From the NCBI RefSeq assembly GCF_013315695.1, contig NZ_CP054353.1: DNA of 64,000 bases; one strand, 5' to 3'. Below are positions 7,041 to 56,693 of the stretch, in pieces. This stretch comes from Escherichia coli (GTDB lineage: Bacteria > Pseudomonadota > Gammaproteobacteria > Enterobacterales > Enterobacteriaceae). The stretch's first letter is position 1, and each line of letters opens with the position of its first letter. The notes under the pieces were generated by a model, which saw only the letters and a program-made list of their open reading frames with translations, was not told the origin of the DNA and searched no databases. Both the position numbers and the translations under genes were made by a program.

Positions 7041-10000
7041 GTGAAAGATTTATTAAAGTTTCTGAAAGCGCAGACTAAAACCGAAGAGTTTGATGCGATC
7101 AAAATTGCTCTGGCTTCGCCAGACATGATCCGTTCATGGTCTTTCGGTGAAGTTAAAAAGCCGGAAACCATCAACTACCGTACGTTCAAACCAGAACGTG
7201 ACGGCCTTTTCTGCGCCCGTATCTTTGGGCCGGTAAAAGATTACGAGTGCCTGTGCGGTAAGTACAAGCGCCTGAAACACCGTGGCGTCATCTGTGAGAA
7301 GTGCGGCGTTGAAGTGACCCAGACTAAAGTACGCCGTGAGCGTATGGGCCACATCGAACTGGCTTCCCCGACTGCGCACATCTGGTTCCTGAAATCGCTG
7401 CCGTCCCGTATCGGCCTGCTGCTCGATATGCCGCTGCGCGATATCGAACGCGTGCTGTACTTTGAATCCTATGTGGTTATCGAAGGCGGTATGACCAATC
7501 TGGAGCGTCAGCAGATCCTGACTGAAGAACAGTATCTGGACGCGCTGGAAGAGTTCGGTGACGAATTCGACGCGAAGATGGGTGCGGAAGCAATCCAGGC
7601 CCTGCTGAAGAGCATGGATCTGGAGCAAGAGTGTGAACAGCTGCGTGAAGAGCTGAACGAAACCAACTCCGAAACCAAGCGTAAAAAGCTGACCAAGCGT
7701 ATTAAACTGCTGGAAGCGTTCGTTCAGTCTGGTAACAAACCAGAGTGGATGATCCTGACCGTTCTGCCGGTACTGCCGCCAGATCTGCGTCCGCTGGTTC
7801 CGCTGGATGGTGGTCGTTTCGCGACTTCTGACCTGAACGATCTGTATCGTCGCGTCATTAACCGTAACAACCGTCTGAAACGTCTGCTGGATCTGGCTGC
7901 GCCGGACATCATCGTACGTAACGAAAAACGTATGCTGCAGGAAGCGGTAGACGCCCTGCTGGATAACGGTCGTCGCGGTCGTGCGATCACTGGTTCTAAC
8001 AAGCGTCCTCTGAAATCTTTGGCCGACATGATCAAAGGTAAACAGGGTCGTTTCCGTCAGAACCTGCTCGGTAAGCGTGTTGACTACTCCGGTCGTTCTG
8101 TAATCACCGTAGGTCCATACCTGCGTCTGCATCAGTGCGGTCTGCCGAAGAAAATGGCACTGGAGCTGTTCAAACCGTTCATCTACGGCAAGCTGGAACT
8201 GCGTGGTCTTGCTACCACCATTAAAGCTGCGAAGAAAATGGTTGAGCGCGAAGAAGCTGTCGTTTGGGATATCCTGGACGAAGTTATCCGCGAACACCCG
8301 GTACTGCTGAACCGTGCACCGACTCTGCACCGTCTGGGTATCCAGGCATTTGAACCGGTACTGATCGAAGGTAAAGCTATCCAGCTGCACCCGCTGGTTT
8401 GTGCGGCATATAACGCCGACTTCGATGGTGACCAGATGGCTGTTCACGTACCGCTGACGCTGGAAGCCCAGCTGGAAGCGCGTGCGCTGATGATGTCTAC
8501 CAACAACATCCTGTCCCCGGCGAACGGCGAACCAATCATCGTTCCGTCTCAGGACGTTGTACTGGGTCTGTACTACATGACCCGTGACTGTGTTAACGCC
8601 AAAGGCGAAGGCATGGTGCTGACTGGCCCGAAAGAAGCAGAACGTCTGTATCGCTCTGGTCTGGCTTCTCTGCATGCGCGCGTTAAAGTGCGTATCACTG
8701 AGTATGAAAAAGATGCTAACGGTGAATTAGTCGAGAAAACCAGCCTGAAAGATACGACCGTTGGCCGTGCCATTCTGTGGATGATTGTACCGAAAGGTCT
8801 GCCTTACTCCATCGTCAACCAGGCGCTGGGTAAGAAAGCAATCTCCAAAATGCTGAACACCTGCTACCGCATTCTCGGTCTGAAACCGACCGTTATTTTT
8901 GCGGACCAGATCATGTACACCGGCTTTGCCTATGCAGCGCGTTCTGGTGCATCTGTTGGTATCGATGACATGGTCATCCCGGAGAAGAAACACGAAATCA
9001 TCTCCGAGGCAGAAGCTGAAGTTGCTGAGATTCAGGAGCAGTTCCAGTCTGGTCTGGTAACTGCGGGCGAACGCTACAACAAAGTTATCGATATCTGGGC
9101 TGCGGCGAACGATCGTGTATCCAAAGCGATGATGGATAACCTGCAAACTGAAACCGTTATTAACCGTGACGGTCAGGAAGAGAAGCAGGTTTCCTTCAAC
9201 AGCATCTACATGATGGCCGACTCCGGTGCGCGTGGTTCTGCGGCACAGATTCGTCAGCTTGCTGGTATGCGTGGTCTGATGGCGAAGCCGGATGGCTCCA
9301 TCATCGAAACGCCAATCACCGCGAACTTCCGTGAAGGTCTGAACGTACTCCAGTACTTCATCTCCACCCACGGTGCTCGTAAAGGTCTGGCGGATACCGC
9401 ACTGAAAACTGCGAACTCCGGTTACCTGACTCGTCGTCTGGTTGACGTGGCGCAGGACCTGGTGGTTACCGAAGACGATTGTGGTACCCATGAAGGTATC
9501 ATGATGACTCCGGTTATCGAAGGTGGTGACGTTAAAGAGCCGCTGCGCGATCGCGTATTGGGTCGTGTAACTGCTGAAGACGTTCTGAAGCCGGGTACTG
9601 CTGATATCCTTGTTCCGCGCAACACGCTGCTGCACGAACAGTGGTGTGACCTGCTGGAAGAGAACTCTGTCGACGCGGTTAAAGTACGTTCTGTTGTATC
9701 TTGTGACACCGACTTTGGTGTATGTGCGCACTGCTACGGTCGTGACCTGGCGCGTGGCCACCTCATCAACAAAGGTGAAGCAATCGGTGTTATCGCGGCA
9801 CAGTCCATCGGTGAACCGGGTACACAGCTGACCATGCGTACGTTCCACATCGGTGGTGCGGCATCTCGTGCGGCTGCTGAATCCAGCATCCAGGTGAAAA
9901 ACAAAGGTAGCATCAAGCTCAGCAACGTGAAGTCGGTTGTGAACTCCAGTGGTAAACTGGTTATCACTTCCCGTAACACCGAACTGAAACTGATCGACGA

Positions 10001-11264
10001 ATTCGGTCGTACCAAAGAAAGCTACAAAGTACCTTACGGTGCGGTACTGGCGAAAGGCGATGGCGAACAGGTTGCTGGCGGCGAAACCGTTGCAAACTGG
10101 GACCCGCACACCATGCCGGTTATCACCGAAGTAAGCGGTTTTGTACGCTTTACTGACATGATCGACGGCCAGACCATTACTCGTCAGACCGACGAATTGA
10201 CCGGTCTGTCTTCGCTGGTGGTTCTGGATTCCGCAGAACGTACCGCAGGTGGTAAAGATCTGCGTCCGGCACTGAAAATCGTTGATGCTCAGGGTAACGA
10301 CGTTCTGATCCCGGGTACCGATATGCCTGCGCAGTACTTCCTGCCGGGTAAAGCGATTGTTCAGCTGGAAGATGGCGTACAGATCAGCTCTGGTGACACC
10401 CTGGCGCGTATTCCGCAGGAATCCGGCGGTACCAAGGACATCACCGGTGGTCTGCCGCGCGTTGCGGATCTGTTCGAAGCACGTCGTCCGAAAGAGCCGG
10501 CAATCCTGGCTGAAATCAGCGGTATCGTTTCCTTCGGTAAAGAAACCAAAGGTAAACGTCGTCTGGTTATCACCCCGGTAGACGGTAGCGATCCGTACGA
10601 AGAGATGATTCCGAAATGGCGTCAGCTCAACGTGTTCGAAGGTGAACGTGTAGAACGTGGTGACGTAATTTCCGACGGTCCGGAAGCGCCGCACGACATT
10701 CTGCGTCTGCGTGGTGTTCATGCTGTTACTCGTTACATCGTTAACGAAGTACAGGACGTATACCGTCTGCAGGGCGTTAAGATTAACGATAAACACATCG
10801 AAGTTATCGTTCGTCAGATGCTGCGTAAAGCTACCATCGTTAACGCGGGCAGCTCCGACTTCCTGGAAGGCGAACAGGTTGAATACTCTCGCGTCAAGAT
10901 CGCAAACCGCGAACTGGAAGCGAACGGCAAAGTGGGTGCAACTTACTCCCGCGATCTGCTGGGTATCACCAAAGCGTCTCTGGCAACCGAGTCCTTCATC
11001 TCCGCGGCATCGTTCCAGGAGACCACTCGCGTGCTGACCGAAGCAGCCGTTGCGGGCAAACGCGACGAACTGCGCGGCCTGAAAGAGAACGTTATCGTGG
11101 GTCGTCTGATCCCGGCAGGTACCGGTTACGCGTACCACCAGGATCGTATGCGTCGCCGTGCTGCGGGTGAAGCTCCGGCTGCACCGCAGGTGACTGCAGA
11201 AGACGCATCTGCCAGCCTGGCAGAACTGCTGAACGCAGGTCTGGGCGGTTCTGATAACGAGTAA
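7041..11264 (+). CDS. rpoC: RNA polymerase beta-prime subunit
   Basis: 1407 aa, GTG start; [37 protein letters not shown], zinc-finger cysteines, NADFDGD catalytic motif. Confidence 0.97.
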
Positions 11265-41717: not shown

Positions 41718-45401
<3,684 letters not shown>

Positions 45402-45620
45402 TTCACAAATCTGTCACTTTTCCTTACAACAAACAGGGCGCTCAATGAGTGCCCTGTCTCTTTATTAATATGAAACACTTATACTGGAATCAGGCTGGAA
45501 TAATCTTAGCCGGAAAAACGAAGGTCAAAAGGCACAGTAAAGATGCCAGTCAGCGTGTTTCCGGTCCTTTGGTCATTCAATTGCTTCAGGAACATATAAC
45601 GATAAGGAGAACCTGAACTC

Positions 45621-47252
45621 GTGTTAACGCTGCTTCACCTGCTTTCTGCCGTCGCCCTGCTGGTCTGGGGGACTCATATTGTTCGAACCGGCGTAATGCG
45701 CGTCTTCGGCGCGCGTCTGCGTACTGTTCTTAGCCGAAGCGTCGAAAAGAAGCCGCTCGCCTTTTGCGCGGGGATAGGCGTTACCGCACTGGTGCAGAGC
45801 AGTAATGCCACCACCATGCTGGTGACCTCGTTTGTCGCTCAGGATCTGGTAGCCCTCGCACCGGCTCTGGTGATTGTGCTGGGTGCAGATGTCGGGACGG
45901 CGCTAATGGCGCGTATTCTCACCTTCGATTTATCCTGGCTGTCACCGTTACTTATTTTTATCGGCGTGATTTTTTTCCTCGGACGCAAACAGTCACGCGC
46001 CGGGCAACTGGGCCGCGTCGGTATTGGTCTTGGGCTGATTTTGCTGGCGCTGGAGTTGATTGTGCAGGCCGTAACGCCGATCACCCAGGCAAACGGCGTT
46101 CAGGTGATCTTTGCCTCGCTGACCGGCGATATTCTGCTGGATGCGCTGATTGGCGCGATGTTCGCCATTATCAGCTACTCCAGCCTTGCTGCTGTACTGC
46201 TGACCGCGACTCTGACCGCCGCAGGCATTATCTCCTTCCCCGTGGCGCTCTGTCTGGTGATTGGTGCTAACCTCGGTTCCGGTCTGCTGGCGATGCTCAA
46301 CAACAGTGCCGCCAATGCCGCAGCCCGCCGTGTCGCGCTGGGTAGCCTGCTGTTTAAGCTGGTGGGTAGCCTGATTATCCTGCCGTTTGTCCATTTGCTG
46401 GCAGAGACAATGGGGAAGTTGCCACTGCCAAAAGCGGAACTGGTGATCTATTTCCACGTCTTCTACAACCTTGTACGCTGCCTGGTCATGCTGCCATTTG
46501 TTGACCCGATGGCACGGTTTTGCAAAACGATTATTCGCGATGAACCGGAACTGGATACCCAGCTACGACCCAAACATCTGGATGTCAGCGCGCTGGATAC
46601 GCCCACGCTTGCTCTGGCGAACGCCGCGCGCGAAACCCTGCGCATTGGCGACGCCATGGAACAGATGATGGAAGGGTTGAATAAAGTGATGCACGGCGAG
46701 CCACGGCAGGAGAAAGAGCTGCGTAAGCTGGCAGATGATATCAACGTTCTCTACACCGCCATTAAGCTGTATCTGGCGCGAATGCCAAAAGAGGAACTGG
46801 CAGAAGAAGAGTCGCGCCGCTGGGCGGAGATCATCGAAATGTCGCTCAACCTTGAACAGGCCTCCGATATCGTCGAGCGCATGGGCAGCGAAATTGCCGA
46901 CAAATCGCTGGCTGCAAGGCGAGCATTTTCGCTTGATGGTTTGAAGGAACTGGATGCGCTCTATGAGCAATTGCTCAGTAATTTAAAACTGGCAATGTCG
47001 GTTTTCTTCTCTGGCGATGTTACCACCGCCCGTCGTTTGCGCCGTAGCAAACATCGTTTTCGCATTCTTAATCGCCGCTATTCCCATGCCCACGTCGATC
47101 GCCTGCATCAGCAAAACGTGCAAAGCATTGAAACCAGTTCGCTACATTTAGGCTTACTGGGAGATATGCAGCGTCTGAACTCGCTGTTTTGTTCGGTGGC
47201 TTACAGTGTGCTGGAACAGCCGGATGAAGACGAAGGACGGGACGAGTATTAA
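45621..47252 (+). CDS. yjbB: Na/Pi cotransporter family membrane protein YjbB
   Basis: 543 aa polytopic N-terminal half plus PhoU-like C-terminal half; position after metH. Confidence 0.9.
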   Translation: MLTLLHLLSAVALLVWGTHIVRTGVMRVFGARLRTVLSRSVEKKPLAFCAGIGVTALVQSSNATTMLVTSFVAQDLVALAPALVIVLGADVGTALMARILTFDLSWLSPLLIFIGVIFFLGRKQSRAGQLGRVGIGLGLILLALELIVQAVTPITQANGVQVIFASLTGDILLDALIGAMFAIISYSSLAAVLLTATLTAAGIISFPVALCLVIGANLGSGLLAMLNNSAANAAARRVALGSLLFKLVGSLIILPFVHLLAETMGKLPLPKAELVIYFHVFYNLVRCLVMLPFVDPMARFCKTIIRDEPELDTQLRPKHLDVSALDTPTLALANAARETLRIGDAMEQMMEGLNKVMHGEPRQEKELRKLADDINVLYTAIKLYLARMPKEELAEEESRRWAEIIEMSLNLEQASDIVERMGSEIADKSLAARRAFSLDGLKELDALYEQLLSNLKLAMSVFFSGDVTTARRLRRSKHRFRILNRRYSHAHVDRLHQQNVQSIETSSLHLGLLGDMQRLNSLFCSVAYSVLEQPDEDEGRDEY

Positions 47253-47261
47253 TACCGTGAC

Positions 47262-47337
47262 CCTGTAGGCCTGATAAGACGCGTAAAGCGTCGCATCAGG
47301 CACGATGAACAAGATGCCGGATCATGCATCCGGCAAT
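47262..47337. repeat. REP element pair
   Basis: CTGTAGGCCTGATAAGACGCGTAAAGCGTCGCATCAGGCA and GATGCCGGATCATGCATCCGGCAA between yjbB and pepE. Confidence 0.8.
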
Positions 47338-47341
47338 TCAT

Positions 47342-48031
47342 TTAAAAACGGTGACCCGCTTCCAGCGGAACCGCTTCTTCACCAGCCTTAAATACATAAG
47401 TGGTGTTCGGGCCACCCAGCGTAGCGTGACCTTTACTTACTGTGATCCAGTTACCTTCCGGCAGACCAATAATCGTCAGTTCTGGCGCGACGACCAGCAG
47501 TTCGCGAATACGCTGCTCACGCGTTTCACCTTTATGGCCTTCCGGCAGCGCGTTGGTGAAGTGCGGGTTGATTTGCAACGGGAACAGATTCAGCGCATCG
47601 AAACCTTGCGGATCGACAATCGGCATATCGTTGGTGGTACGAATGGTTGGGCAAGCAAGGTTAGCGCCTGCGCTCCAGCCAATATACAGCGCGCCACGTT
47701 TCACCACGTCAGTAATTGGTGCCAGCAGCCCGCGCTCGCGGCACTGTTTCAGCAACTGGAAAGTATTACCGCCGCCGACAATCACGATCTCAGCATTTTC
47801 AATCGCGGCAACGGGATCGACAACGCTATGAATACCGGTGACAGAAACACCCAGCGGAGCGAGAACCGCAGCCGTTTTCGCTGTGTAATCATCCCAGGTC
47901 TGCGTTACGCCAGCGAAAGGAATAAATACCGCTGAGCGGCGACCCTGCAACTGTTCAGCAATCAGCGGCAGCGCGTGTTCCAGCCAGGCTTTACCCGGCA
48001 GCGTCGAGTTACTCAATAAAAGCAGTTCCAT
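47342..48031 (-). CDS. pepE: Dipeptidase E (alpha-aspartyl dipeptidase)
   Basis: 229 aa [57 protein letters not shown]. Confidence 0.95.
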
Positions 48032-48153
48032 TACTTCTCCGGTTAGTAAGAAATCACGGGAGCCATGCTACCACTGTGATTTTAACCGCTTACTGACATG
48101 GCTCACGATGTTGCGCATTGCTTCTGGCGTGGCAAACAAGGCGCTGATGTTTC

Positions 48154-48966
48154 TTATCCTTCTCGTGCAAATTGTGCCGCCTCAGCAATCAGTTGCGCAT
48201 CAGGCCGTACGCCGGTATACATTGCGAACTGCTCGACGGCCTGTAAAGCAATCACCTCCGCACCGCTAATCGTCTGCTTATCAAGCCGTTGCGCCAGGCG
48301 AATGAGCGGCGTTTCCGGCGGCAAGGCCACGACATCAAAAACGACGCTTGCCGTTGAGACCATCGCTTCGCTGAAGGCCAGCTCATGGCTCTCTTTACCG
48401 CCGCTCATGCCAACGGGCGTCACGTTGACCAGAATGTCGCAGGCGATGCCTTCCGGCTGCGGTTGCCACTGAAACCCATACTGCTTCGCCAGCGCCGGGC
48501 CGCTCTCGCGGTTGCGGGCGGCAATGATAACATCCGTAAACCCCGCGTCGCGAAAGGCGGCAATCACCGCTTTGCCCATGCCGCCACTGCCGCGAATCAT
48601 CACTCGCGTGGTGGTATTGAGCTGGTGGTGGGTAATCAGGCTTTTCACCGCGATATAGTCGGTGTTAAACCCGGTCAGCCTGCCGTCGTCATTCACGATG
48701 GTATTCACGGAATCAATGACCTTCGCCGACGGATCGATCGCGTCGAGAAAAGGCATGCAGCTTTCTTTAAACGGCATCGACACAGCGCAACCGCGAATAC
48801 CCAACGCGCGAACCCCTTTCACCGCCGCTGCAATATCCTGGGTGGTGAACGCTTTATAGATGAAATTCAGCCCCAGCTTTTCATAAAGATAATTGTGAAA
48901 ACGCGTGCCGAAGTTACCGGGGCGGCCGGCCAGCGACATGCAGAGTTGAGTATCGCGATTAATCAT
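48154..48966 (-). CDS. AroE/YdiB-family (shikimate dehydrogenase-like) NAD(P) oxidoreductase, substrate unknown
   Basis: 271 aa from ATG(rc) 48964-48966: MINRDTQLCMSLAGRPGNFGTRFHNYLYEKLGLNFIYKAF...NTDYIA...IRGSGGMGKAV; N-terminal substrate domain, NTD motif and Gly-rich Rossmann loop laid out as in AroE; start overlaps the sorE stop (ATGATTAA). Confidence 0.75.
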   Translation of the reverse strand: MINRDTQLCMSLAGRPGNFGTRFHNYLYEKLGLNFIYKAFTTQDIAAAVKGVRALGIRGCAVSMPFKESCMPFLDAIDPSAKVIDSVNTIVNDDGRLTGFNTDYIAVKSLITHHQLNTTTRVMIRGSGGMGKAVIAAFRDAGFTDVIIAARNRESGPALAKQYGFQWQPQPEGIACDILVNVTPVGMSGGKESHELAFSEAMVSTASVVFDVVALPPETPLIRLAQRLDKQTISGAEVIALQAVEQFAMYTGVRPDAQLIAEAAQFAREG

Positions 48967-50188
48967 GGGAAATCGCCTCTGCATGGGCGAGCAGGTACTG
49001 CTCCGCCTCGCCAGACCAGACTCCCTGATGACGCGCCAGAATCGCCGCCAGTTCTTCATCCTGAATCTGCGTGAGTGATGTCAGCGGCAGATATTTCCCG
49101 GTATACACCAGTTTTTTCCCGCCGCCGACGGCAGGCAATTCAAGCGTGGTTTCGCCCGCGGCATTCAGCCCAAGAATATGTGTTACCACTTTTGCGGCCT
49201 GCACTTTTTTCTCTTCAATCAATTTGACCGCTGCGCGCATGTCGTCGGTATTGCCGCCTGACGTGCCTACGTAGTGGGTAAATGCATAATGCACATCGTA
49301 GAAATTAATTGGCGCGCTGAAGTGCTTATCCTGCGGTCCGGCGAAGAAATTCAGGCAACCATCTGTCGCCAGCAAGGAAGAGGCGAGAGTCACCAGTCCT
49401 TCATTAGGCACAAAGACGAAAATATCATCGAAGCCGTGACCGCCACTCAGCGCCATTAACGTATCAAATGCTGCATCGGTGGCATTGAGATAATGAATCA
49501 GTGTTTGCGGTTCTGATGGATAGTGCTTGCGCGCATAACTCAATTTGTCGTTGTCGGTATCGGTAATGACGAGCAGCGAAGGGTTAACGGGTCCATGTAG
49601 CGCATAATCAATCGCCAACAGTCCCATTGGTCCGGTGCCGCCGAGGATCAGCGTGCGCCCTTGCGGGCGAATCCCCATCGTGTGGTTATAACTACCTTCC
49701 TGAAGATGATAGTTGGCGTTGAACGCGCCAATCACGCAGGAAAGCGGTTCAACCAGCGAGCCTTCAAAATAGGTTTCGCCGTCGTATGCCAGCAGGCAAT
49801 CTTGTTCCATGACCTCGTTGGGAATAACCACATGCGTCGCTTCGCCGCCTACCCACGGGAAGGAGTAGCCGGGGCAGTCCGGGCGGTCGGGGAGTTGCAG
49901 GTTGGCCTGAATCACATAACGCTGACCCGGCTGGAATTTGTGCTGCCACTTTTTACCCACGGCCAGAATATCGCCGCAAAATTCGTGGCCGATGATGATG
50001 GGATTGGTCGCCACATCGTCGGGTACTTTTTTATGGTTTTCCCCCAGATTGGCCTCTTTCCAGGAAGAGAGGCACAGGCTGTCAGTGACCACCGTCGCGA
50101 GGATTTCATCCTCCTGCATTTCAGGAAGGTCAAAGGTTTCCAGACGCAGGTCACGTTTGCCATAAAGACGCAGAGCTGTTGTTTTCAT
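48959..50188 (-). CDS. sorE: Sorbose-1-phosphate reductase (Zn-dependent MDR dehydrogenase)
   Basis: About 409 aa (MKTTALRLYGKRDLRLETFDL...), zinc-ADH fold motifs GHEFCGDI and LILGGTGPMG; last gene of the sor-type PTS cluster; start ambiguous (track ORF 48959..50200). Confidence 0.75.
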   Translation of the reverse strand: MKTTALRLYGKRDLRLETFDLPEMQEDEILATVVTDSLCLSSWKEANLGENHKKVPDDVATNPIIIGHEFCGDILAVGKKWQHKFQPGQRYVIQANLQLPDRPDCPGYSFPWVGGEATHVVIPNEVMEQDCLLAYDGETYFEGSLVEPLSCVIGAFNANYHLQEGSYNHTMGIRPQGRTLILGGTGPMGLLAIDYALHGPVNPSLLVITDTDNDKLSYARKHYPSEPQTLIHYLNATDAAFDTLMALSGGHGFDDIFVFVPNEGLVTLASSLLATDGCLNFFAGPQDKHFSAPINFYDVHYAFTHYVGTSGGNTDDMRAAVKLIEEKKVQAAKVVTHILGLNAAGETTLELPAVGGGKKLVYTGKYLPLTSLTQIQDEELAAILARHQGVWSGEAEQYLLAHAEAISHD

Positions 50189-50239
50189 AAACCACCTCAT
50201 GTTGAGCGATGACCCCGGCAGTCGTGCCGGGGCGAAGAA

Positions 50240-51064
50240 TCAGGACAGGAAGCCCAGCGCATTACCGATAATCCCTAAACCAAACAGGGCGAAAATCAGC
50301 CATACCGGGTTAATTTTTTTGTTGAGCAGACGTACCATCAGCAGCGTCAAACCGAGCGCCAGCAATCCAGGGCAAAGCTGGTCGAGAATGTTCTGTACGG
50401 TCATAGTGACGGTGGCACCATCGGCGGCAGGCGTTTGTGAAACCACTAACGGCACGTTGATCGATGTCCATTTGGTCACCAGTACGCCCATTACAAACAG
50501 CCCGAGAATCGACGCGCCTTCGGTCAGTTTTTGCAGCAAATTACCGCCCATATCGCTGACGATATTCACCCCTTTACGAAAGCCCAGTTGCAGCCCATAC
50601 CATTTCATTGCCAGACGTACTGCATTGAAAATAAAGAAGAACAGCAGGGGGCCGAGAATGTTGCCCGAAAGTGCCAGAGATGCGCCGAGCGCGGCGGTAA
50701 TCGGGCGCAGCGTTCCCCAGACCAGTGGATCGCCAACACCTGCCAACGGTCCCATCAGGCCGACTTTGATGCCGTTAATGGTACCGTCATCAATTTCCGC
50801 GCCGTTGGCTCGCGCCTCTTCCATGGCGGCAGTGACGCCGATGACCGGGCCACATACGGCTGGCGTGGTATTGAAGAACACCAGGTGTCGCCTGAGCGCC
50901 GCAACTTGATCCTCTTTTAATGGGTAAAGTCGTTTGATGGCGGGGATCATGTCGTAGCAAAAACCCAGCCCGTGAATACGTTCAAAGTTAAAGGATGCCT
51001 GTTGCAGGTTGGAGCGCAGAAACATGCTCACCAGATCGCTGCGTGTAATTTTTCTCTGTTCCAT
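50240..51064 (-). CDS. sorM: PTS sorbose (mannose-family) EIID component
   Basis: About 274 aa (MEQRKITRSDLVSMFLRSNLQQASFNFERIHGLGFCY), characteristic EIID-Man N-terminus; alternative start 51094. Confidence 0.8.
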   Translation of the reverse strand: MEQRKITRSDLVSMFLRSNLQQASFNFERIHGLGFCYDMIPAIKRLYPLKEDQVAALRRHLVFFNTTPAVCGPVIGVTAAMEEARANGAEIDDGTINGIKVGLMGPLAGVGDPLVWGTLRPITAALGASLALSGNILGPLLFFFIFNAVRLAMKWYGLQLGFRKGVNIVSDMGGNLLQKLTEGASILGLFVMGVLVTKWTSINVPLVVSQTPAADGATVTMTVQNILDQLCPGLLALGLTLLMVRLLNKKINPVWLIFALFGLGIIGNALGFLS

Positions 51065-51074
51065 GATGGCTCCG

Positions 51075-51872
51075 TTAATCATCAAGTTGGTCAAGGGCGG
51101 TGATAGTGGTGGTCTGGGGATGTGGTTCAGCTTTACGCCACTGTGGATTTAACTGGATGTAGAGCAGGGCCATGATCACGCCGACGCCACCGAACGCCAG
51201 CAGACTGAGATCGAGGTAGCCACCTGCGAGGAAACCGAGGAAAAAGAAAGGCATCAAATATTTCACGCCCATCATGCGAAGCACCATGGCGTAACCGACC
51301 ACCACGATAAAACCGCCAGCAATCTGCAGCCCACGGGTCACAAATTCGGGAATGGCGCTCAGCATATTGCTCACCATATCAGCGCTGACGAACAGCGAGA
51401 CAATCAGTGCCGGAATAGCAACGCGCAGTGCCTGCACGCCAAGCGCGGAGACATGCAGAATATCGAGAGTGCGAAACCGTGCTTCTTCCGCTGCTTTATC
51501 CGCCGCGTGCTGGAACACTACGGTGATGGTACGGGCAAACACCGTCAGCACCTGGCCTGCCGCAGCCACAGGCAACGCGATGGCGATTCCGGTGGCGATG
51601 CTTTGCTGACCAACGATAACCAGAATGGCGGAGATTATGCTGGCGAGTGCAGAATCCGGAGATTGCGCCGCGCCGACGTTCATCCAGCCGAGAGCTATCA
51701 ATTCCAGCGTACCACCGAGCATAATTCCGGTTTTTAAATCACCGAGAATTAAACCAATCACCGTACAGGCAATTAACGGACGATGAGTCTGAAATTCATC
51801 CAGCACGCTGCCCATTCCGGCAATACAGGAAAAAAGAAATATAGCAATAATTTGTAGGGTACTTATTTCCAT
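51075..51872 (-). CDS. sorA: PTS sorbose EIIC component
   Basis: 265 aa polytopic membrane protein MEISTLQIIAIFLFSCIAGMGSVLDEFQTHRPLIACTVIGLILGDLKTGIMLGGTLELIALGW (EIIC-Man family). Confidence 0.8.
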   Translation of the reverse strand: MEISTLQIIAIFLFSCIAGMGSVLDEFQTHRPLIACTVIGLILGDLKTGIMLGGTLELIALGWMNVGAAQSPDSALASIISAILVIVGQQSIATGIAIALPVAAAGQVLTVFARTITVVFQHAADKAAEEARFRTLDILHVSALGVQALRVAIPALIVSLFVSADMVSNMLSAIPEFVTRGLQIAGGFIVVVGYAMVLRMMGVKYLMPFFFLGFLAGGYLDLSLLAFGGVGVIMALLYIQLNPQWRKAEPHPQTTTITALDQLDD

Positions 51873-51937
51873 GATTTGTCACCTTTTAAGTGTCGTCATC
51901 CCTGCCTGTTAAAGCATATGTACACAGGCGCTATTAT

Positions 51938-52432
51938 TTAATTTGCGATTAACTGTTCGTTTATTTTGTCGATAATATTGATTGAGGGATCTGACGCTAC
52001 GACGCGTAAATCCAGTATGACGCCAAGATTATTTAACTCATGAAATGCGTTAATATCATCGTCATCTAATGAAACTGCTTTGGTTAACTGTTTCTTACCA
52101 GGACGCCAGGCCATACCGCCAATATTCAGGGTACCTATTTTTACCCCCTGGCGAACCATTGCTAAGGCATCTTGTGGGCGAGTGAAAAGATAAAAAACGG
52201 TTTCGTCCTGATATTGCGGGTTGTGATAAACCGCGACGGCTTTTTCAATATTGACCACGTTAACCTTCATTCCCGGTGGCGCAGCCTGACGCAATAATGT
52301 CCGGCGAACTTCATCGTTATAAACTTCGTCATTGCAGATAATAATGCGTTGGGCGTTAGCCACTTTAGACCAGACGGTAGTGACCTGGCCGTGGATCAGG
52401 CGGTCATCAATGCGGGCGAGCGTAATGTTCAT
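51938..52432 (-). CDS. sorB: PTS sorbose EIIB component
   Basis: 164 aa MNITLARIDDRLIHGQVTTVWSK, EIIB-Man phosphohistidine motif. Confidence 0.82.
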   Translation of the reverse strand: MNITLARIDDRLIHGQVTTVWSKVANAQRIIICNDEVYNDEVRRTLLRQAAPPGMKVNVVNIEKAVAVYHNPQYQDETVFYLFTRPQDALAMVRQGVKIGTLNIGGMAWRPGKKQLTKAVSLDDDDINAFHELNNLGVILDLRVVASDPSINIIDKINEQLIAN

Positions 52433-52839
52433 CAGAAATCCTCCTCCGCTGTTGCCACCTGTCTCCAGACGACGCAGATTTGCTTTGCGATTTGCGTCAG
52501 GTGTTCACACAGTTCATCAATATTCATGCTGTCCTGGTTATCAACCAGTTCGAGCGCCAGCGGCAGAGAAAGGCCGCTGATTACCCGCAGACGAGGATTG
52601 CGCATCGCAAGCATCGCTGCCGCATTCCACGGGCTGCCGCACTGTAAATCCACGGCAATCAGCCACTCATCTTGATTGTGAATGCTTGCTAACTTTTCCA
52701 GCTTTGCTACGATGTCTCCGGCGTTCTCGCCGGGCACAAATTCAACGGCCTCGACCCTGGCATCGCCGTACACCATCTGAACCGATTCCAGCATGGCGCA
52801 AGCTAATTTGCCATGGGCGCAAAAAATGGCATTGACCAT
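52432..52839 (-). CDS. sorF: PTS sorbose EIIA component
   Basis: 135 aa MVNAIFCAHGKLACAMLESVQMVYGD, EIIA-Man with conserved His near N-terminus. Confidence 0.82.
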   Translation of the reverse strand: MVNAIFCAHGKLACAMLESVQMVYGDARVEAVEFVPGENAGDIVAKLEKLASIHNQDEWLIAVDLQCGSPWNAAAMLAMRNPRLRVISGLSLPLALELVDNQDSMNIDELCEHLTQIAKQICVVWRQVATAEEDF

Positions 52840-52848
52840 AAAGCCTCC

Positions 52849-53655
52849 TTAGCCGCGCGTTTTGCCGCCCGCAATGTTAGTGGTTACTCCGGTGATATAG
52901 CTGGCGCGTTCAGACAGCAGATAACAAACAAAATCAGCCACTTCTGCTAATCTTCCGGCGCGCCCAATAGGAATGGCGTTTTTGGTATAGCCTTCACGCA
53001 GCTGCTCGACGGTGATATTGCGCGTCCACGCCAGCGCTTCTTCATATTCCGGCGTGCGCAGTCCTGTTTTTTCCAGAATCCCCGGCGCGATACCGACCAC
53101 ACGGATACCGTGCTTACCCAGTTCTTTCGACCAGGAGCGAGTGAAGCTATTGAGCGCAGCTTTAGTGGCGGCGTAGCAGCTCTGGCCTTCTGAGCCTTCC
53201 AGCCCACTTTCTGAGGAAACATTCACAATCACGCCATCGTGTTGTTTGACCATCTGTCGCGCCACCGCCTGCGACATCAGAAAAACGCCTTTCTGGTTGA
53301 TATTGACCATTTTTTCGAATGCAGCTTCGTTGAGTTCATACTGCCCGGCAGGCGCTTTCTCATCGACCAGCAGACGCGGGAAATTGACCCCGGCGTTATT
53401 GACCAGACCGTCGATGCGACCAAAACGCTGGATAATTTCTGCTACCGTATGATTTACCTCTTTGGCGCTGGAAATATCGGTCGGCCAAAACTGATAGCCT
53501 TTATGACCTTCATATTGTCCATCGCCACCGTGAATATCGACCATCTGTACATTCGCGCCTTGTGCTAATAATTCATCCACAATCGCCAGACCAATGCCGG
53601 ATGCGCCACCGGTGACAATAATGATTTTATCCTGCAAATTTAACCACGTTTGCAT
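52849..53655 (-). CDS. sorD: Short-chain dehydrogenase (D-glucitol-6-phosphate dehydrogenase type)
   Basis: 268 aa MQTWLNLQDKIIIVTGGASGIGLAIV... (TGxxxGIG), SDR catalytic YAATK. Confidence 0.8.
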   Translation of the reverse strand: MQTWLNLQDKIIIVTGGASGIGLAIVDELLAQGANVQMVDIHGGDGQYEGHKGYQFWPTDISSAKEVNHTVAEIIQRFGRIDGLVNNAGVNFPRLLVDEKAPAGQYELNEAAFEKMVNINQKGVFLMSQAVARQMVKQHDGVIVNVSSESGLEGSEGQSCYAATKAALNSFTRSWSKELGKHGIRVVGIAPGILEKTGLRTPEYEEALAWTRNITVEQLREGYTKNAIPIGRAGRLAEVADFVCYLLSERASYITGVTTNIAGGKTRG

Positions 53656-53724
53656 AACAGACTCCTGATTTTAGATAATAGGGACCCGCCGTAATTTTTA
53701 TTACGGTAAACATCGGGAAGATTT

Positions 53725-54672
53725 TTATTTCAGTAATAGTTCAGCTGTGCTGCTATTCGTTACCAGACAATTAATATATTTTCCACGCAGTGCACCAACA
53801 ATTCCGCTGTATTTTTCTTCACTCATGGCAATGCCAATGGAATATCGTGCCTGCTTTAATTTATTCATTTCGATAGAGAGTGTTTTTTCGCTCATATTCG
53901 TTTCAACCATTGCGCCGTGAATATCAAAAAAGCGCGAGCAAATATCGCCAGCAACCTGGCGGGCATTCAGGTCGTCACTCTCTTCACCACCATAAAACGC
54001 ATGCCAGTTAGCGCCGTCGCGAATGGCCGGTGAGCCAATTCCCACCAGGGCGACATCCAGATTATCCCAGTAGGCAGAGATGGTTTTAAAGTGCTGAGAC
54101 TGCATGATCCCATTACGAATTAATGGGTTATCCAGCAGAGCCGGAAAATCCGCGAGATGCGATTCCCCTTTCAACTTCGCTGCCGCGCTGTAGGTTAATG
54201 TGTTTACATGATAGCGGCTTTCGAGTTTACCGGACGGTCCGCCAATAATTGGTACGCAGATTAACTGCCGCGATTGCCCCGCCTGCGGCAAGTTTTCAAC
54301 CAGTGCGCTCACCGCGCGGCCCCAGGAAAAACCAACAATATCGCCAGGTTCCAGCAAGCGATCCAGCAGTTGCGCGCCGTGTAACCCCATCATCGCCAGT
54401 TGAGTCTCTTCATCCTCATCATTTCCCGACACCACCACAACGTCTTTCAGGCCAAACTTTTGCTTCAGTTGCTGCTCCAGCCAGAGATTTTCGTTGTAGT
54501 CATAGTTGATGGCGATGGTGACAATTCCCTGATCGCGGCCTCGTTTAAGCAAGCGGCTGATGGTGGTGCGGTAAATACCCAGTTCGCGCGCGATTTGCGC
54601 CTGCGTCATATCCTGTTCGTAATAGAGTTGGGCAATCTTCACAATCAAACGGATATCGTCACTGTTTTCCAT
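53725..54672 (-). CDS. sorC: SorC-family transcriptional regulator of the sorbose operon
   Basis: 315 aa from ATG(rc) 54670-54672 (MENSDDIRLIVKIAQLYYEQDMTQAQIARELGIYRTTISRLLKRGRDQGIV), N-terminal HTH plus sugar-phosphate binding domain; first gene of the cluster. Confidence 0.8.
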   Translation of the reverse strand: MENSDDIRLIVKIAQLYYEQDMTQAQIARELGIYRTTISRLLKRGRDQGIVTIAINYDYNENLWLEQQLKQKFGLKDVVVVSGNDEDEETQLAMMGLHGAQLLDRLLEPGDIVGFSWGRAVSALVENLPQAGQSRQLICVPIIGGPSGKLESRYHVNTLTYSAAAKLKGESHLADFPALLDNPLIRNGIMQSQHFKTISAYWDNLDVALVGIGSPAIRDGANWHAFYGGEESDDLNARQVAGDICSRFFDIHGAMVETNMSEKTLSIEMNKLKQARYSIGIAMSEEKYSGIVGALRGKYINCLVTNSSTAELLLK

Positions 54673-55019
54673 TGCCGCCTCCTGGTTCTGCACATTTGTG
54701 CAAATACGCTTTCTCACCGCTTGATCTGATATAACCCCATCATGATGGCCTTTCAAAGCGATTTTTCACTCTTTGCATGGGGGGAAATAGCGCTTTCTCT
54801 TGCACATTTGTTTCTCTGCGTAGTAGTCATCAGCACAGGTGTGCAGCGATTCGTAATATGTTGATTATCCTTATTTTGCCAGGCAAATTTGCATCGTACT
54901 TCCGGAGACACTTTTGTGATAAAAGGCGTGGCAGATCACATTTAATTTCGACGTTGCCGCATAACCCTGTTTTTCCCCGCTAAGAGGTACGGTATATTCC
55001 GCGTTTTACAGGAGAATTT

Positions 55020-55892
55020 ATGCTGCCCGACTCATCAGTCCGTTTAAATAAATACATCAGCGAAAGCGGAATTTGCTCACGCCGCGAAGCGGATCGCTAT
55101 ATCGAGCAAGGCAATGTGTTCCTTAATGGCAAGCGAGCCACCATTGGCGATCAGGTGAAACCCGGCGACGTTGTGAAAGTAAACGGTCAGTTGATTGAGC
55201 CTCGGGAAGCCGAAGATTTGGTACTTATCGCCCTGAACAAGCCCGTCGGTATTGTCAGCACCACCGAAGATGGCGAGCGCGATAACATTGTCGATTTCGT
55301 TAACCACAGCAAACGCGTGTTCCCGATTGGCCGCCTGGATAAAGACTCCCAGGGGCTGATTTTCCTCACCAATCACGGCGATCTGGTGAATAAGATCCTC
55401 CGTGCGGGTAACGATCATGAGAAAGAGTATTTGGTGACGGTTGATAAACCGATTACCGATGAATTTATTCGTGGTATGGGGGCGGGAGTGCCGATCCTCG
55501 GGACGGTGACGAAAAAGTGCAAAGTCAAAAAAGAAGCGCCGTTTGTCTTCCGCATTACCCTGGTGCAGGGGCTGAACCGTCAGATCCGTCGCATGTGCGA
55601 GCACTTTGGTTACGAAGTGAAAAAGCTGGAACGTACGCGCATTATGAACGTCAGTTTAAGCGGCATTCCGCTGGGTGAGTGGCGCGATTTAACCGACGAT
55701 GAGTTAATCGACCTCTTTAAGCTCATCGAAAATTCCTCTTCCGAGGCAAAACCTAAAGCGAAGGCCAAACCGAAAACGGTAGGCATCAAACGTCCAGTCG
55801 TCAAGATGGAAAAAACGGCGGAAAAAGGCGGTCGCCCGGCGTCCAACGGTAAGCGTTTTACCTCGCCGGGGCGAAAAAAGAAGGGACGTTAA
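55020..55892 (+). CDS. rluF: 23S rRNA pseudouridine synthase RluF
   Basis: 290 aa; S4 domain N-terminus and pseudouridine synthase motif [21 protein letters not shown]; Lys-rich tail. Confidence 0.94.
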
Positions 55893-56165
55893 TCAGCGCC
55901 TGCCGCGCGTCGACGTATTTGCTGACCAGCTAAATGACGCCTCAGGATCCGGTTTATAAGCCTGCTTTTTCTTCAATTGGCGGGCTTTTTTCGCTTCAGC
56001 CTCACGCTCGACCATTAATTTATCGATGTACTCTTTCTTAATGCTGTTGGTTTCGGAGTTGGTCAGTACGCGACCATGCGCAATCCGCGCCCGATCCAGC
56101 AATGTTTTAAGTTCACGCTGCTCGCGTTCAGTCATCTCTTTTTGGGTAATACGGGGGAGTGCCAT
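55893..56165 (-). CDS. yjbD: DUF3811 family protein YjbD
   Basis: 90 aa MALPRITQKEMTEREQRELKTLLDRARIAHGRVLTNSETNSIKKEYIDKLMVEREAEAKKARQLKKK. Confidence 0.85.
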   Translation of the reverse strand: MALPRITQKEMTEREQRELKTLLDRARIAHGRVLTNSETNSIKKEYIDKLMVEREAEAKKARQLKKKQAYKPDPEASFSWSANTSTRGRR

Positions 56166-56378
56166 GATGGTGCCCTCAGTGAGCCAGAGAGTTCAGTGTA
56201 CGGGAATTCGTTTGCGAGCAGAACTGATAATATTCCTTTGTTCCCTTCTTAAATATCTATCTTTCTTGATAATTGACGATAAATACAGATAAAAATTTAG
56301 CAAAAAGTTTTCCCCCTACAAACAACAGTAATTCATTAACTCTTTATTTTTCATTTGGTTAATGGTTTTTCTCAATTC

Positions 56379-56394
56379 TGGCACGCTTCTCGCA
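56379..56394 (+). promoter_or_regulatory. Putative sigma54 (-24/-12) promoter upstream of the SPFH gene
   Basis: TGGCACGCTTCTCGCA: matches TGGCACG-N4-TTGCW with one mismatch (C for T at -14); GG and GC separated by 10 nt; about 300 nt upstream of the SPFH start. Confidence 0.45.
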
Positions 56395-56693
56395 ATAACA
56401 CTTTTGCGTTGATACTGAATTTCAAAGGGGATTAAACCCCGTCGGCACACCAGGAACGGCCAGGCTGTTTTCCGGGCGTGTTCCGTCAGCCTTTGACGCT
56501 AATTACGGGTTCGATTCCCGAATTCATTCCTGAAATGAATACTGGTTGTAACTTATTAAATAAAAAATGGGGGATTGCGCAGTCAGCGATCCCCGATAAC
56601 GTCGCCGATAAAGACGCCGGGATACAGGCAAAAGGGAATTCCCCTGTCTCTTCGTGTCTGCTTCCGCGACGGCTGTTAAGCAAGGAATAGATA

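Follow-up and report, generated by a model that had tools for sequence, protein, structure and literature searches.

sdhL, a gene resembling those of shikimate dehydrogenases, as a putative ancestral eighth cistron of the enterobacterial L-sorbose operon

The sdhL locus and its product

The stretch of Escherichia coli DNA analyzed here, 64,000 nucleotides of contig NZ_CP054353.1 (NCBI RefSeq assembly GCF_013315695.1) and hereafter the window, carries the sor operon for L-sorbose utilization and, overlapping the end of its gene sorE, a gene for a protein of the shikimate dehydrogenase (SDH) family, sdhL. The gene, the class of its product and its induction by sorbose are already on record: RefSeq annotates it beside sorE as 'shikimate 5-dehydrogenase', its product is an ortholog of Haemophilus influenzae HI0607, and in 2025 an mSystems paper devoted to sor in E. 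coli gave it the name sdhL and documented its response to sorbose (PMC12817954). A preliminary description of this DNA set the gene beyond the end of the described operon, at sorE; undescribed it is not. What comparative analysis adds is the putative standing of sdhL as an ancestral eighth cistron of the operon, a single deletion that accounts for its absence from other sor-positive E. coli, its occurrence with sorC alone or without sor genes, and the uniform loss of a residue triad presumed to bind the shikimate carboxylate.

The gene and the elements at its start are as follows.
48154..48966, minus strand: sdhL coding sequence (open reading frame and translation; NF009202; Pfam; PDB 1NPY; RefSeq 'shikimate 5-dehydrogenase')
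48959..48966, minus strand: ATGATTAA, overlap of the sdhL start codon and the sorE stop codon (read directly)
48976..48979, minus strand: GAGG, Shine-Dalgarno sequence of sdhL, within the sorE coding sequence and 9 nt 5' of the ATG

Read on the minus strand, the sdhL ATG (48966-48964) precedes the sorE TAA (48961-48959), giving an 8-nt overlap in which the SorE C-terminus closes as ...ISHD*. The preliminary description was right about the reading frame at 48154-48966 and its overlap with the sorE stop, although not about its length: the 813 nt comprise 270 codons and a stop, and the 271 aa given there had counted the stop. The position of the GAGG is kept in other genera—in Kluyvera it is located after the sorC stop—and the same or a near-adjacent sorE/sdhL junction recurs in Pseudocitrobacter, Klebsiella, Raoultella, Serratia sp. 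H1w, Citrobacter and the Klebsiella pneumoniae complex. A 301-aa extended reading frame starting at 49059, taken from a mechanical list of open reading frames, was ruled out; because orthologs all begin MINRDT, 48966 is the real start of sdhL. Two reading frames run antisense to the gene, one of 229 aa (48385-49074, plus strand) and one of 124 aa (48098-48472, plus strand), and at several related loci a naive call returns an antisense frame longer than sdhL. These are probably a by-product of the high third-position GC content of the gene (GC3, 0.66).

The product of sdhL matches the NCBIfam model NF009202 (PRK12550) at 467.5 bits against a cutoff of 306 (E 1e-140), its residues 1-268 covering profile positions 4-271 of 272. 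In the PDB it comes closest to 1NPY, HI0607 of H. influenzae, entered as a 'shikimate 5-dehydrogenase-like protein' (377.8 bits, E 2e-112, residues 1-268 against 1-268); the next, at 117 bits, is 1NVT, the AroE of Methanocaldococcus jannaschii. Matches as strong as those to NF009202 and 1NPY lie far outside chance. Every AroE model scored below its curated cutoff—TIGR00507 at 164.6 bits versus 200.2, NF001319 at 243.2 versus 252, and the remainder far under—as did the YdiB model NF009390, at 96.2 bits versus 349. Because the NF009202 and 1NPY scores stand against AroE and YdiB models that all fall short, the predicted product is assigned to the SDH-L class as an ortholog of HI0607, and to neither AroE nor YdiB. 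The preliminary description's view of it as a paralog with the AroE/YdiB fold is borne out by the N-terminal domain (Pfam Shikimate_dh_N at residues 23-90, E 1e-17, with Shikimate_DH matched too), the NTD motif at 101-103 and the GSGGMG motif at 126-131. A crystal structure of the SDH-L class has existed since 2005, but to our knowledge no physiological role has been ascribed to it.

Published data connect the gene to sorbose. In the ST648 strain PBIO730, L-sorbose raises sdhL by log2 fold changes of 6.01 in RNA and 6.77 in protein, compared with 5.62-5.67 for the sorA, sorF, sorB and sorE transcripts (PMC12817954, supplement). In the same paper the sor genes number seven, and sdhL is a shikimate-pathway gene and a neighbor 'immediately upstream'; of the lineages examined there, ST648 alone has it adjoining the sor operon, and it is grouped with the up-regulated shikimate-pathway genes (PMC12817954). 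The literature that we searched yielded no link between sdhL and sorbose beyond this paper.

Around sdhL, the genes of the window run metH, yjbB, pepE, sdhL, sorE, sorM, sorA, sorB, sorF, sorD, sorC, rluF; the sor genes, transcribed in the order sorC, D, F, B, A, M, E from the same strand as sdhL, lie between rluF and pepE. Locus, order, strand and regulator are those of sorCDFBAME in K. pneumoniae and E. coli, and sdhL is co-induced with it; the difference is that published descriptions end at sorE, whereas the comparative data add sdhL. The remaining features of the operon are listed below, the evidence for sorM through sorD being an open reading frame and the RefSeq product in the syntenic locus of E. 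coli JNEC-KY178 (L002).
48959..50188, minus strand: sorE, L-sorbose-1-phosphate reductase, 409 aa (RefSeq annotation; translation)
50240-51064, minus strand: sorM
51075-51872, minus strand: sorA
51938-52432, minus strand: sorB
52432-52839, minus strand: sorF
52849-53655, minus strand: sorD
53725..54672, minus strand: sorC, regulator of 315 aa that opens the operon (open reading frame; RefSeq 'sugar-binding transcriptional regulator')
54673..54850, minus strand: sor promoter region with TGCACA-N2-TGTGCA palindromes, candidate SorC operators (pattern search)
48060..48104, minus strand: weak hairpin with U-rich sequence after it, in the spacer from the sdhL stop to the start of pepE (fold of 48165-48025)

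Directly 5' of the sorC start stands a perfect palindrome, TGCACATTTGTGCA (54689-54702); a copy with one mismatch lies about 140 bp farther up (54832-54845), and related half-sites also occur in the region upstream of sorC (54673-55019). In an alignment, Klebsiella, Citrobacter and Kluyvera all retain the proximal palindrome together with a -10-like box, TATAT/TATAC. Across the whole window, with two mismatches allowed, the motif count is not above chance, and so the case for operators rests on position and conservation; these make the palindromes upstream of sorC probable SorC operators. At the far end of the operon, the hairpin in the sdhL-pepE spacer has a z-score of -1.0, which is not significant, and only its 3' part is flagged in a consensus scan for promoters and terminators; it is a possible, if unconvincing, operon terminator. 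At the sorE/sdhL junction the scan picked up nothing resembling a promoter or a terminator, a result to be read in light of site counts at or below shuffle expectation, which render the scan uninformative. An Rfam scan of 45000-56500 returned no matches. The placing of sdhL as an eighth gene of the operon, as the preliminary description had it, is helped by the overlap with sorE, by the lack of a terminator-like site between the two and by the published co-induction; co-transcription itself we infer.

Distribution across species and within E. coli

Eighty SDH-L loci were kept from one scan of species-representative genomes, among which the K. pneumoniae representative did not figure, and Sor proteins were located by tblastn within the 20-kb neighborhood of each locus. 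At 29 of the 37 Enterobacteriaceae species loci, sorCDFBAME is followed directly by sdhL; the carriers include Pseudocitrobacter, Escherichia spp., Citrobacter, the Klebsiella oxytoca group, Raoultella, Enterobacter spp., Serratia sp. H1w and Entomohabitans. Our initial assumption that K. pneumoniae is without sdhL was overturned by locus L083 and a cluster look-up, which place the gene after sorE in K. pneumoniae, K. quasipneumoniae and K. variicola. Throughout this complex the arrangement is the same, with an 8-nt overlap and 84% identity, in at least 1000 contigs. Because sdhL follows sorE there, the seven-gene description falls short even in the defining species. As far as sequence comparison can tell, then, sdhL is an ancestral eighth cistron of the operon across Enterobacteriaceae, the K. 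pneumoniae complex included. The sor operons of Yersinia and Enterococcus faecium end at sorE, with no SDH gene.

In six Kluyvera species sorC is followed, after a gap of some 22 nt, by an sdhL that has a GAGGA of its own, and no other sor genes occur in the 20-kb neighborhood. Kluyvera sorC is intact, at 307 aa with SorC/DeoR-type family matches, and the palindrome TTGCACA(A/T)ATGTGCAG and a -10-like box are kept 5' of it. Pairwise Nei-Gojobori estimates put dN/dS for sdhL at 0.05-0.12 among sor-linked genera, and among the six Kluyvera species at 0.05-0.09 for sdhL and 0.03-0.13 for sorC. Owing to these ratios and to the kept promoter palindrome, a minimal sorC-sdhL module appears to be maintained at the Kluyvera locus without phosphotransferase system (PTS), SorE or SorD. 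Two Pluralibacter loci have sdhL alone, with a remnant of the sorE 3' end in front of it.

A second, independent adjacency of sorC and sdhL was observed in Serratia silvae (L073), in which a SorC-like reading frame (8970-9788) stands 200 nt 5' of an intact sdhL (9989-10807) belonging to a distant clade (65% identity). The regulator here is truncated: the N-terminal ~47 residues, which form the helix-turn-helix region, are missing, and what remains is 55% identical to SorC residues 48-314. In three draft assemblies, a split sor gene sits beside an intact sdhL, with sorE in two overlapping tblastn pieces in Escherichia sp. MOD1-EC7003 and E. albertii NBRC 107761, and sorD split in E. coli SCPM-O-B-8794 (split genes at L005 8780-10005, L008 1517-2772 and L006 4068-4870). 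Such cases, which may be pseudogenes or assembly errors, were not used as evidence.

The other 43 of the 80 loci are without sor catabolic genes and belong mostly to Pasteurellaceae, with Pseudomonas, Lautropia, Neisseria, Rahnella, Ewingella and others also represented. At 19 of them sdhL lies 7-27 nt after cysE, in the string (yibN-secB-)gpsA-cysE-sdhL; elsewhere it comes after hlyBD or rimM-trmD-rplS. In this respect the window gene differs from HI0607 and its kin: the Pasteurellaceae genes take these positions with no sugar genes nearby, whereas in the window sdhL is attached to the sor operon at its 3' end, and sorbose induces it. A search for a conserved functional partner outside Enterobacteriaceae met with housekeeping or variable genes (cysE, gpsA, udp, lpxH, hlyBD, rplS, dld, a nitroreductase gene, exbBD) that give no clue to the substrate.

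Within E. coli, sdhL has a history of its own. Across 5426 complete genomes, sorE is present in 2866 and sdhL in 176, and the interior of the gene is what the other sor-positive strains are missing.
48208..48908, minus strand: 701-bp interior of sdhL, missing from other sor-positive E. coli (Nissle spacer alignment)

The pepE-sorE spacer of strain Nissle aligns to window positions 48138-48207 and 48909-49069 only, its scar joining the first 58 nt of sdhL (48909-48966, with ATGATTAA) to the last 54 nt and downstream sequence (48138-48207). The deletion of 48208-48908 is internal and frame-breaking. A 161-nt query spanning the deletion junction matched 2690 genomes—exactly the number obtained by subtracting the 176 genomes with sdhL from the 2866 with sorE, and ~94% of sor-positive E. 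coli. In 2689 of them the match extends over at least 80% of the query length. Because one common scar is found in every sor-positive genome without sdhL, the gene is ancestral to the E. coli sor operon and was lost once, and the deleted allele is now dominant. Within the sor locus of E. coli, sdhL offers a clean presence/absence marker, reflecting one ancient 701-bp deletion.

So widespread a deletion might be taken as a sign that sdhL is a decaying relic without function in E. coli. Yet 175 of the 176 carriers have an intact frame at no less than 99% identity, dN/dS is low across genera, and the protein has been both detected and found to be induced (PMC12817954). Selection and proteome data effectively refute the relic explanation, which we consider extremely improbable.

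Several further observations bear on the allelic variety of this locus. Besides the deletion, Nissle has ~180 bp (L001 2189-2368), containing the REP-like GCCTGATGCGCTAC, in place of the 26 bp at window 48112-48137. The divergent sdhL allele of JNEC-KY178 (L002 5342-6154) has 91% nucleotide identity to that of the window, and this strain has two hypothetical-protein genes between metH and yjbB at the position of a 220-bp spacer in the window (45402-45620). At 99% identity or above, only 158 of the 2866 E. coli sorE copies match that of the window (48970-50200), the others being 95-99% identical, and so few close copies make the sdhL-bearing sor operon look like a distinct allele lineage, not like the common allele with one gene added. 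sdhL is retained mainly in the lineage to which the high-risk clone ST648 belongs; in this clone the use of sorbose has been tied to competitive fitness.

Active site and the shikimate question

An alignment was built of 82 SDH-L sequences, the enzyme from M. jannaschii, and E. coli AroE and YdiB, the latter two verified as exact matches to 1NYT and 1NPD. The catalytic residues Lys67 and Asp103 are invariant in all 82 SDH-L sequences, as are Ser63 (AroE Thr61), Asn88 (Asn86), Thr102 (Thr101) and Gln242 (Gln244). The departures lie elsewhere: AroE Ser14 is replaced by Asn18 in 81 of the 82, Ser16 by Gly20 in every one, and Tyr215 by Ala214, again without exception, whereas AroE, YdiB and the SDH of M. 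jannaschii all keep Ser14, Ser16 and Tyr215. From complexes of AroE and of the Thermus thermophilus and Arabidopsis enzymes, we take these three to be the ligands of the shikimate carboxylate. Because all three carboxylate-holding residues are replaced, the physiological substrate is probably not shikimate. The preliminary description had proposed an inspection of the active-site residues: with the dyad kept and three carboxylate binders exchanged, SDH-L does not retain all shikimate-binding residues, and the suspicion voiced there that this is not a genuine shikimate enzyme gains support from replacements found in all or nearly all of the 82 orthologs, a pattern in favor of a different substrate.

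SDH-L shares with AroE (1NYT) and YdiB (1NPD) the two-domain fold, the Lys/Asp pair, the equivalents of Asn86, Thr101 and Gln244, the Rossmann glycine loop and the Arg of the NRT/ARN motif, but differs in PDB scores of only 55-95 bits, in a substrate loop that is two residues shorter and in the replacement of NTDG by NTDY. The Arg that the ARN motif of SDH-L retains from the NRT motif of AroE is consistent with use of NADP(H). With HI0607 the likeness extends to equal length, the Lys67/Asp103 dyad, the GSGGM loop, the shortened (G/S)NFGT loop and Ala214. The 2005 study of HI0607 by Singh and colleagues reportedly found no oxidation of quinate and is said to have mutated the residues Lys67 and Asp103.

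Could SdhL still be a genuine, if slow, shikimate/3-dehydroshikimate dehydrogenase, employed as a backup or in NADPH balancing and linked to sorbose by read-through only? The catalytic dyad and every hydroxyl-binding residue are intact, and across taxa the gene lies at the 3' ends of unrelated operons, after sorE, cysE, hlyD or rplS. sdhL is also dispensable for growth on sorbose and is placed among the up-regulated shikimate-pathway genes by PMC12817954. Such an enzyme would not be expected to have lost all three carboxylate-binding residues in all or nearly all of 82 orthologs, nor to miss the curated cutoff of each AroE and YdiB model. Moreover, the pairing of sdhL with an intact sorC and sor promoter in six Kluyvera species is hard to explain were the sorbose signal irrelevant. 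We think a slow shikimate dehydrogenase unlikely, while regarding it as the main rival. Species that carry sdhL already possess aroE. By calling the gene 'shikimate 5-dehydrogenase', RefSeq probably over-annotates it, and metabolic models that take the name at face value would gain a false aroE isozyme.

Candidate substrates and the place of SdhL in sorbose metabolism

The explanation that we favor, while giving it no better than an even chance, is that SdhL is an accessory, non-shikimate oxidoreductase under SorC control. It would be made as the terminal, translationally coupled cistron when L-sorbose induces the SorC-controlled sorCDFBAME operon, and would act as an NADP(H)-type secondary-alcohol/ketone oxidoreductase through Lys67/Asp103 hydride-transfer chemistry. 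The substrate would be a polyhydroxylated ring or a ketose that does not have the carboxylate of shikimate, shikimate itself being unlikely; leading candidates are L-sorbose-1-phosphate, another ketose or ketose phosphate, and 5-keto-D-fructose (5-KF). SdhL would stand outside the core route from L-sorbose to fructose-6-phosphate, in an accessory or detoxifying role, because that route works without sdhL and because the gene is kept with sorC alone or without sor genes. The minimal Kluyvera module suggests a substrate tied to whatever SorC senses.

That sdhL is not needed for growth on L-sorbose is shown by the 2690 scar genomes found here and by strain ST131, which grows on L-sorbose minimal medium without the gene (PMC12817954). 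The preliminary description had envisaged that sdhL extends the sorbose pathway. This now looks doubtful: not only do ST131, the scar genomes and the sor operons of Yersinia and Enterococcus manage without sdhL, but the gene is under purifying selection where its locus has no sor catabolic genes, as in Kluyvera, Pluralibacter and Pasteurellaceae.

A number of points tell against an accessory, non-shikimate enzyme under SorC control. HI0607 reportedly oxidizes shikimate, slowly and with NADP+, at a turnover ~1000-fold lower than that of AroE in the study by Singh and colleagues, and shikimate may accordingly still be a substrate. The assignment of Ser14, Ser16 and Tyr215 as carboxylate ligands was carried over from the known complexes. 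Transcription of sdhL from the sor promoter is deduced from position and equal induction, and the varied contexts of the gene, after cysE, hlyD or rplS, are equally to be expected of one hitch-hiking at operon 3' ends. The absence of sor genes in Kluyvera and Pluralibacter holds for the 20-kb locus, so that such genes may lie elsewhere in these genomes. Finally, SDH-L is no closer to a ketofructose reductase (63 bits) than to ordinary AroE.

A more specific role has been considered, in which SdhL would provide a SorE-independent exit, by reduction or oxidation with NADP(H), from toxic L-sorbose-1-phosphate, or from ketose-1-phosphates that arise through promiscuous PTS uptake. General polyol-phosphate enzymes would finish the task, and the exit would be useful without Sor PTS, SorE or SorD, in keeping with the minimal sorC-sdhL module maintained in Kluyvera. 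The gene is sorbose-induced; a delta-sorAM mutant still grows, sorbose entering through other PTS systems; and sorbose strongly impairs the growth of a delta-sorE mutant in a strain without sdhL (PMC12817954). Because sorbose enters by other PTS and poisons delta-sorE cells, L-sorbose-1-phosphate or a similar ketose phosphate is an attractive candidate. Exchange of Ser and Tyr for Gly and Ala at the carboxylate end would, moreover, be expected to enlarge the pocket. The altered loop, however, has no conserved basic residue to hold a phosphate (position 22 is Arg here and Thr in HI0607), Pasteurellaceae have no SorC, and most E. coli have lost sdhL at no evident cost. Detoxification of ketose phosphates is thus, to our minds, also rather unlikely as the actual role, but if true it would give the SDH-L class its first physiological function and would explain the sorC-sdhL module of Kluyvera.

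Alternatively, SdhL may be a reductase of the 5-KF type, acting on the free keto-sugars that accompany L-sorbose in fruit and in habitats of acetic acid bacteria. There is precedent for this activity in the SDH family, as illustrated by the ketofructose reductases (KFRs) of Gluconobacter (PDB 7COK) and Tatumella. The Tatumella enzyme is SDH-type and strict for 5-KF, which it converts with NADPH to D-fructose, and both L-sorbose and 5-KF are oxidation products of Gluconobacter (PMC7954740). These KFRs offer a mechanistic precedent in that an NADPH enzyme of SDH fold works on a ketohexose rather than on shikimate. They are distant in sequence, however, and make D-fructose from 5-KF: the match of SdhL to 7COK reaches 63.2 bits (E 2.3e-16) and ranks 19th, no better than ordinary AroE. 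An SDH homolog from Clostridium, 48% similar to KFR, is inactive on 5-KF (PMC7954740), and membership in the SDH family is therefore no predictor of this activity. The further idea of an SDH-type KFR that produces L-sorbose was dropped, as D-fructose is the product of such enzymes and it is aldo-keto reductases that yield L-sorbose (PMC7954740). We hold a 5-KF reductase to be very unlikely. We know of no link between KFR and a PTS operon.

Conserved attachment to a sugar operon that is governed by a sugar-responsive regulator provides the best available clue to the substrate of the SDH-L class, and reduces the candidates to a short, testable list. Together, the distribution of sdhL and the residues of its active site make this orphan class experimentally tractable.

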